From assembly GCA_963514005.1 (NCBI GenBank), contig OY740815.1:4712001-4776000 (forward strand): DNA of 64,000 nucleotides. The letters run 5' to 3'. Under the pieces are notes generated by a model, which worked only from the letters and a program-made list of their open reading frames with translations, did no database searches and had not been told where the DNA came from. The position numbers and the translations under genes were made by a program. Below, one piece after another: positions 52,991 to 53,130 of this stretch. The stretch is from Raja brachyura (Eukaryota). Each line of letters opens with the position of its first letter. Position 1 is the stretch's first letter.

Positions 52991-53130
52991 CTCTTCTTGC
53001 GTATGGCACGCACAGCCTAAAGTTGAAGGTCAACTTGTTCTATTTGATCTTGTTTGTGCACGTCAGGTTGATTGCATTAGTCGAAAAAGGGTGGCCCATG
53101 TGAAGTCCCCCACCCAATCTTCCCCACCCC
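52991..53130 (-). mobile_element. HDV-like-ribozyme-headed short retroposon (copy 2), nested in a minus-strand V-SINE (~52900-53390)
   Basis: Homologous to 685-825 with the same 5' GGGGTGG start and AAGAAG tail; retains C-UAA-UGCAAUC. Confidence 0.78.

Follow-up and report, generated by a model that had tools for sequence, protein, structure and literature searches.

A decayed short retroposon in Raja brachyura and the P4-less HDV-like ribozyme predicted for its family

Introduction

Short retroposons that begin with a self-cleaving ribozyme have been described in several lineages. NARTc, RIME and SIDER elements, derivatives of L1Tc and ingi in trypanosomatids, combine the two ends of an Ingi-group LINE and an HDV-like ribozyme that cuts at the first base, as is predicted for the design considered here (PMC4035085, PMC5786205). 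The R2 SIDEs of Drosophila likewise have a 5' HDV-like ribozyme joined to a LINE 3' end by internal deletion, and they spread by target-primed reverse transcription, the route that we also propose here (PMC3414825). Non-autonomous derivatives of Vingi-1_EE in the hedgehog provide another parallel, being internally deleted from a compact, single-ORF LINE without RNase H (PMC5786205). Ribozymes in retrotransposons have been reviewed (PMC6765202), and the human genome keeps traces of Vingi, X12_LINE (PMC5753468).

A second line of comparison concerns the fold. Minimal HDV-like and theta ribozymes form a P4-less nested double pseudoknot of about 54 nt with the catalytic C as the first base of J4/2, a description that fits the fold predicted for the family reported here as well (PMC10879173). 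The eukaryotes in that screen were human, mouse and protists, and its authors call the origin and function of the minimal P4-less forms open (PMC10879173). Here we describe an element at 52991-53130 of the window, the 64,000-nt stretch of Raja brachyura DNA that was analysed. The original prediction had described this element as the second copy of a retroposon headed by an HDV-like ribozyme.

Results

The element and its host SINE

Read on the minus strand from 53130 to 52991, the element carries the motifs where they had been placed (Table 1). One qualification concerns the 5' start GGGGUGG, which had been taken as common to both copies: the letters are present, but GGGGUG overlaps an apparent decayed target duplication, which makes its origin partly ambiguous. 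By eye, the two candidate duplications (53125-53136 and 52980-52990) are alike in 9 of 12 letters, while an automatic search for target-site duplications (TSDs) called none for this copy. An Rfam scan of the window gave no match over 52991-53130. The element splits a SINE that we take to be of the V-SINE/HE1 type. Because the flanks of this SINE are contiguous at 72 other places in the window and fetched loci, the element was inserted after it, in agreement with the proposed insertion into an older SINE. Within the 5' part of the host SINE, a local tandem duplication is present, as is a 20-nt C run (53145-53164) next to the junction.

Table 1. Coordinates of the element, its host SINE and related copies in the window
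Feature	Position	Strand	Remarks
Short non-autonomous retroposon, subfamily B, 5' ribozyme damaged	52991..53130	-	140 bases
P1 5' strand GGGGUGG	53124..53130	-	G1 = 53130; overlaps decayed target duplication (overlap by eye)
J1/2 and remnant of P2 5' strand (GAUUG), with 10-nt G-rich stretch	53105..53123	-	
L3 UUCACAU (53104-53098) and P3' GGG	53095..53104	-	family: UUCACGU, GGU
P1' CCACCCU	53088..53094	-	
P1.1 position	53087	-	U here, G in 65/72 family copies
6-nt linker UUUCGA (53086-53081) replacing P4, then J4/2 CUAA (53080-53077)	53077..53086	-	
Predicted catalytic C	53080	-	predicted from sequence
P2' UGCAAUC	53070..53076	-	
Remaining 5' UTR of parent LINE	53050..53069	-	common up to about nt 74 of element
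~21-nt joint from internal deletion	53029..53049	-	partly repeats adjacent LINE letters (by eye)
3' end of parent LINE: last ORF codons and stop, 3' UTR, GAA-type tail	52991..53028	-	L162:4086-4123, 92%
Likely target-site duplication, intact copy	52980..52990	+	by eye; decayed partner about 53125-53136
Host SINE, 3' part	52915..52990	-	
Host SINE, 5' part with tRNA-like head	53131..53390	-	
Copy 1, subfamily C	687..825	-	P1, P2, P3 intact; P1.1 G lost; J4/2 CUAU; 10-bp target duplication
Copy of second ribozyme-headed short family, CPEB3-like fold	59751..59914	-	3' end cut off

Damage to the ribozyme region

The disruption of P2 and P3 by a G-rich insertion was borne out. A 10-nt stretch (53114-53105), which resembles a local repeat of the element 5' end, occupies the site at which P2 ends and P3 begins in intact copies. 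Further changes add to it: U instead of G after P1' (53087), G to A in L3 and U to G in P3', so that both P1.1 and P3 are lost. An intact set of P2, P3 and P1.1, as expected of an HDV-like ribozyme, was not found at 53070-53130, and we predict from the sequence that this copy is a dead member of its family whose ribozyme fold has been lost.

The G-rich disruption might be an error of sequencing or assembly next to a homopolymer, in a copy that is really intact, and the C run and local duplication do adjoin the junction. Against this, contigs of two sequencing runs (X1 and X10, organism A; different samples and studies) cover 53052-53142 and 53050-53142, respectively, and each differs from the damaged 5' end by one letter and no gaps. 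Run X1 may be the assembly's own sample, and X10 comes from another study. With a match from two samples and two studies, we treat the damage as real DNA and reject an assembly error as extremely improbable. The retroposon family was also present in runs X3 and X5 (other organisms), which do not span this junction.

Copies, consensus and subfamilies

The sole relative of the element in the window is copy 1 at 687-825 (84% over 114 nt, E 9e-30). Copy 2, the element at 52991-53130, is 94.6% identical to subfamily B over 112 nt, and copy 1 is 97% identical to subfamily C. Neither passed our descriptor of HDV-like ribozymes. The two copies had been thought to reconstruct the ribozyme between them; this part of the original prediction is not supported, since the P1.1 G is missing from both and each comes from a different subfamily. 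What the two copies alone do not rebuild, the family does. The U-A pair in P1, where copy 1 has U-G, is structure-consistent as claimed but weak as evidence, being a one-sided G/A difference between subfamilies at a CpG-type site (34 A and 38 G across 72 copies). Nor is the proposed U-UUCG-A 'mini-P4' supported, as it comes down to a single possible U-A pair that no covariation backs. The same U follows the P1.1 G in sister families B and E, where P4 is long, and in CPEB3, as read from primer sequences (PMC5984629), which makes a P4-less linker the simpler reading.

Our comparison covers 72 distinct copies close to full length; most are best matches to the two window copies, which are themselves counted, so the set is not a random sample. 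The P1.1 G was present in 65/72 and the C-N-A-A junction in 61/72, so that the consensus has both features on which the prediction had been staked; the catalytic C, the first base of J4/2, was kept in 70/72. Many exceptions to the consensus share the private changes of copy 1, and they are over-drawn because copy 1 was used as a query. Copies start with GGGGTG, are 130-134 nt long and close with GAA repeats, after which the upstream flank is repeated.

A search of the genome (2.70 Gb) returned 3,421 first-look candidates, 40 of which were scored and 30 fetched. Exact copies numbered 1,320 for the 54-nt ribozyme of subfamily C and 132 for the 53-nt ribozyme of subfamily B, against 0 for the reversed controls. 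Copies met incidentally numbered 5 in 452 kb, 4 in 170 kb and 2 in 64 kb. Extrapolation from these 11 copies, which lie in repeat-rich loci, gives a family size of roughly 40,000, of which only the order of 10^4 is firm. The three subfamily consensuses differed at 3/54 ribozyme positions, all structure-neutral, versus 14/80 outside (p = 0.06), and the copies themselves diverge equally fast inside and outside the ribozyme, which counts against the ribozyme reading. Short elements of the family also sit inside Vingi-type LINE copies (L162:1201-1338, L164, L147 and L160). The L162 insertion lies within the parent and has a 12-bp target duplication, so subfamily C is younger than that LINE copy.

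The predicted ribozyme fold

The family consensus contains a 7-bp P1 opened by a G1 wobble, P2, a 3-bp P3, a 7-nt L3, the P1.1 pair between an L3 base and the base after P1', and the putative catalytic C of J4/2 with its following A. P4 is reduced to a 6-nt linker, compared with 19-47 nt in sister families, as in the minimal form. Every sequence-level feature expected of an HDV-like ribozyme is found in the family, and its 5' 54 nt are predicted to form a P4-less HDV-like ribozyme. The original idea of a fold of ~54 nt heading a retroposon holds at this family level.

Run on 838 kb of fetched loci, which had been chosen for these elements, the descriptor gave 53 matches of 34 kinds; in 1.2 Mb of composition-matched random sequence it gave 0. 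Six families account for the matches. One is the present family together with its LINE, three are LINE families (B, C and D), and another is family E, with a match in L059 and a LINE, L161, that by eye starts with a like sequence; the sixth is a second short family. P4 is lacking in the present family only. Matches lie at the 5' ends of elements, an independent point in favour of the fold. Among 15 sequences of five families, P1, P3 and P1.1 were paired in 96.3% of cells (slid controls, 44-55%), and 9/11 pairs changed on both sides, including P1.1 from C-G to U-A in family C (0/500 shuffles as high). The 15 sequences are related and were picked by the descriptor for their pairing, with family D one column out of register, so these counts are support rather than proof. 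Pseudoknot-free folding was no better than for shuffles (z -0.46 to +0.50), a method that cannot show a pseudoknot, and the Rfam HDV-type models did not match the P4-less form (L057, L219).

At least five other Vingi-type families start with different HDV-like folds that have a long P4 (L119:1558, L129:1162, L156:1196, L165:1227, L059:779 and L169/L171/L172). For L169/171/172, the stretch from P3 to P2' is visible by eye and P1 is cut off. No 5' end could be recovered for the Vingi-type family of L163/L164.

The parent LINE

Judged from its matches, the element is an internally deleted single-ORF LINE of ~3 kb, of which the first ~74 and last ~38 nt remain. Its 5' part (to nt ~74) lies directly upstream of the endonuclease ORF in L158, L173, L174 and L162, and its 3' part lies at the ORF stop in L162 and L176. 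A search with the LINE 5' UTR and ORF start matched the element 5' part in 26/30 fetched loci. Both ends come from one LINE, and target duplications, a simple-repeat tail and no coding capacity complete the picture of a bipartite non-autonomous LINE derivative of SIDE type. The route to the parent was an endonuclease search that led to L119, a LINE of ~3.1 kb with an HDV-like fold first and a like tail last; in the L119 endonuclease search 150 of 402 candidates were scored, and 30 loci plus 20 more stretches were taken.

All translated copies of the parent LINE were broken by stops or frameshifts, with frames that match endonuclease and reverse transcriptase (RT) models. The nearest database protein, P0001 (1,019 aa, from a 3.3-kb contig; 65% over the RT query), combines an endonuclease and an RT with a zinc knuckle at its C terminus and lacks RNase H, and it aligned on L162, L173 and L176 over 930-982 of its 1,019 aa with 54-63% identity. 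No RNase H was detected in P0001, P0005, P0011 or the C-terminal frames of the parent, and a Nimb-like LINE used as control was positive. One compact ORF that encodes an APE endonuclease and an RT, and no RNase H, is the architecture of the Vingi clade, as defined in PMC13708176. The parent LINE is thus likely a member of this clade by architecture; since the names Vingi and Ingi occur in none of the 33 protein homologues, we call the label likely rather than shown.

Other origins were considered and rejected. RTE elements as the partner, represented by the DUF6451-bearing LINEs L031-L060, end in a different tail, and none of the matches listed linked them to the element 3' end, and the top 30 endonuclease matches were Nimb-like two-ORF LINEs without a match to the element. 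A classical SINE does not fit, as the head is a LINE 5' end, with no Pol III head derived from tRNA, 7SL or 5S and no Rfam match over the element. A simple motif test on one copy found no Pol III A/B box. Two further observations were made on these loci: an intronless ferritin frame (Pfam PF00210, E 1e-35) is inserted in a parent LINE copy at L173:3252-3833, and a Nimb-like LINE family that looks young and has RNase H (L086-L115, L118) contains open frames up to 944 aa.

Junctions of family copies

TSDs, mostly 11-13 bp long, were found in 41/62 copies with an intact 5' end, compared with 1/240 mismatched pairs. Thirty-five of the 41 end within 1 nt of the ribozyme G1, and a separate count among the 72 copies gave 36/45. 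The cut made by HDV-like ribozymes falls just upstream of G1 (PMC4035085). From the coincidence of this cut site with the TSD ends we infer that the unit is released from read-through RNA by self-cleavage. The base upstream of G1 was T in 40/62 copies (background 32%, p 1e-7), TSDs started with A in 30/41, and one extra junction base was seen in 7/41. These junction features may reflect target preference or non-templated addition.

A second short family and the CPEB3 ribozyme

The second ribozyme-headed short family (L061-L085) is about 200 nt long, with a GAA tail, target duplications and a 6-bp P1, and gave 2,186 first-look candidates in the genome. Two of its copies scored 41.4 and 38.3 bits on the Rfam CPEB3 model (RF00622; cut-off 35), and LINE family D scored 24.1 and 22.4 bits. 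No autonomous parent of this short family was found among the elements examined. With the mammalian CPEB3 ribozyme, the main family has in common the L3 sequence UUCACGU and the G-U after P1' (primers in PMC5984629). In contrast to the main family, which does not match RF00622, the CPEB3 ribozyme is single-copy and intronic and has a P4; the 6-bp P1 of the second short family differs from that of CPEB3 in sequence. Descent of the CPEB3 ribozyme from such an element is possible, although the likenesses lie in a short, constrained core and P1 differs.

Other features of the window

At 40150-42149, inverted arms of 136 and 307 nt, 99% complementary, surround 1,118 nt; they represent either a segment inverted recently or a DNA transposon bearing long terminal repeats. 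Triplet repeats, Glu-rich and Gln/Pro-rich, at 20896-21743, 31996-32588 and 33243-33425 look like exons of a large host gene. A short fold-back pair of SINE/LINE fragments lies at 30068-30327 (95-nt arms at 93%) and a 68-nt hairpin at 48046-48113, and such fold-back pairs account for chance matches to miRNA models.

Discussion

Very probably, the element at 52991-53130 is a decayed copy of a 130-134-nt retroposon made of LINE ends, belonging to a family whose predicted P4-less ribozyme has been lost here, and the family would move as follows. A copy would be transcribed within host read-through RNA. Its ribozyme would cut just 5' of G1 and free a unit with a fixed 5' end, so that under this proposal a Pol III promoter is not needed. 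The protein of the parent LINE would then recognise the 3' end and copy the unit in by target-primed reverse transcription. Inserted copies would decay neutrally, in the present case by a G-rich duplication beside the C/G run and by point changes.

Two other accounts of the 5' 54 nt have to be set against self-cleavage. The region could serve chiefly as an internal promoter or as a site bound by protein, whether or not it also cleaves, with transcription starting at G1. The first 77 nt of L1Tc, Pr77, are both promoter and ribozyme (PMC3383444, PMC8256844), and TSDs that end at G1 fit initiation as well as they fit cleavage. However, the sequence of P1 and P2 varies among the sister families while the pairing and the predicted catalytic C are kept, and a DNA promoter needs neither; we regard this account as unlikely. 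Alternatively, the fold is a vestige of an ancestor with a full P4, non-catalytic since P4 was lost, and the LINE protein needs only the 3' end. We rate this as quite unlikely, although the sister families keep a P4 region of 19-47 nt, several SIDER ribozymes with adequate predicted folds are inactive (PMC4035085), and the signal of constraint in the subfamily comparison is weak (p = 0.06). The P4-less form stands at the head of both the parent LINE and three short subfamilies with all core positions kept, and natural P4-less ribozymes are active (PMC10879173), both of which speak against a vestige.

If this fold cleaves, Vingi joins the LINE clades with a 5' ribozyme, minimal P4-less HDV-like ribozymes gain a eukaryotic home and a job, and a cis unit of ~130 nt (ribozyme plus a tail of ~38 nt) is defined for Vingi, which has already served for RNA-only gene insertion (PMC13708176). 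With more than 1,400 perfect copies in one vertebrate genome, an effect of intronic self-cleavage on host transcripts becomes testable, and the CPEB3-like sister family does the same for the origin of the CPEB3 ribozyme. A broader view, that HDV-like ribozymes have a vertebrate reservoir in Vingi-type LINEs, that the >1,400 perfect copies are active ribozymes of the smallest, P4-less form and able to cut host transcripts, and that the mammalian CPEB3 ribozyme is the domesticated 5' end of such an element, is worth considering but on balance doubtful.

In the literature we searched, nothing on this family was found, no ribozyme in Vingi or in retroposons of cartilaginous fish, and no P4-less vertebrate form; Repbase or Dfam may already list the family or Vingi ribozymes. 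In a 2026 preprint about finding ribozymes, the words Vingi, shark and skate do not occur. Unlike NARTc, RIME and SIDER, the present family has a vertebrate host, a parent without RNase H and a P4-less ribozyme of 54 nt in place of the 77-nt Pr77 with P4, and its cleavage is predicted. The R2 SIDEs are rare and confined to rDNA (PMC3414825), whereas the copies here are dispersed, number in the order of 10^4, have TSDs of 11-13 bp and derive from an APE-type parent. Nearly 99% of minimal HDV-like and theta ribozymes are reported to lie in Caudoviricetes phages, often beside tRNAs (PMC10879173), in contrast to the 5' end of a vertebrate retrotransposon with no tRNA. Assignment as a theta ribozyme was rejected, as this would need a phage genome and a cut site at a tRNA 3' end, whereas here the fold stands at retroposon 5' ends with varied upstream DNA. 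The design is already known from NARTc/RIME and the R2 SIDEs; it is the P4-less vertebrate version that had no counterpart in the literature searched.
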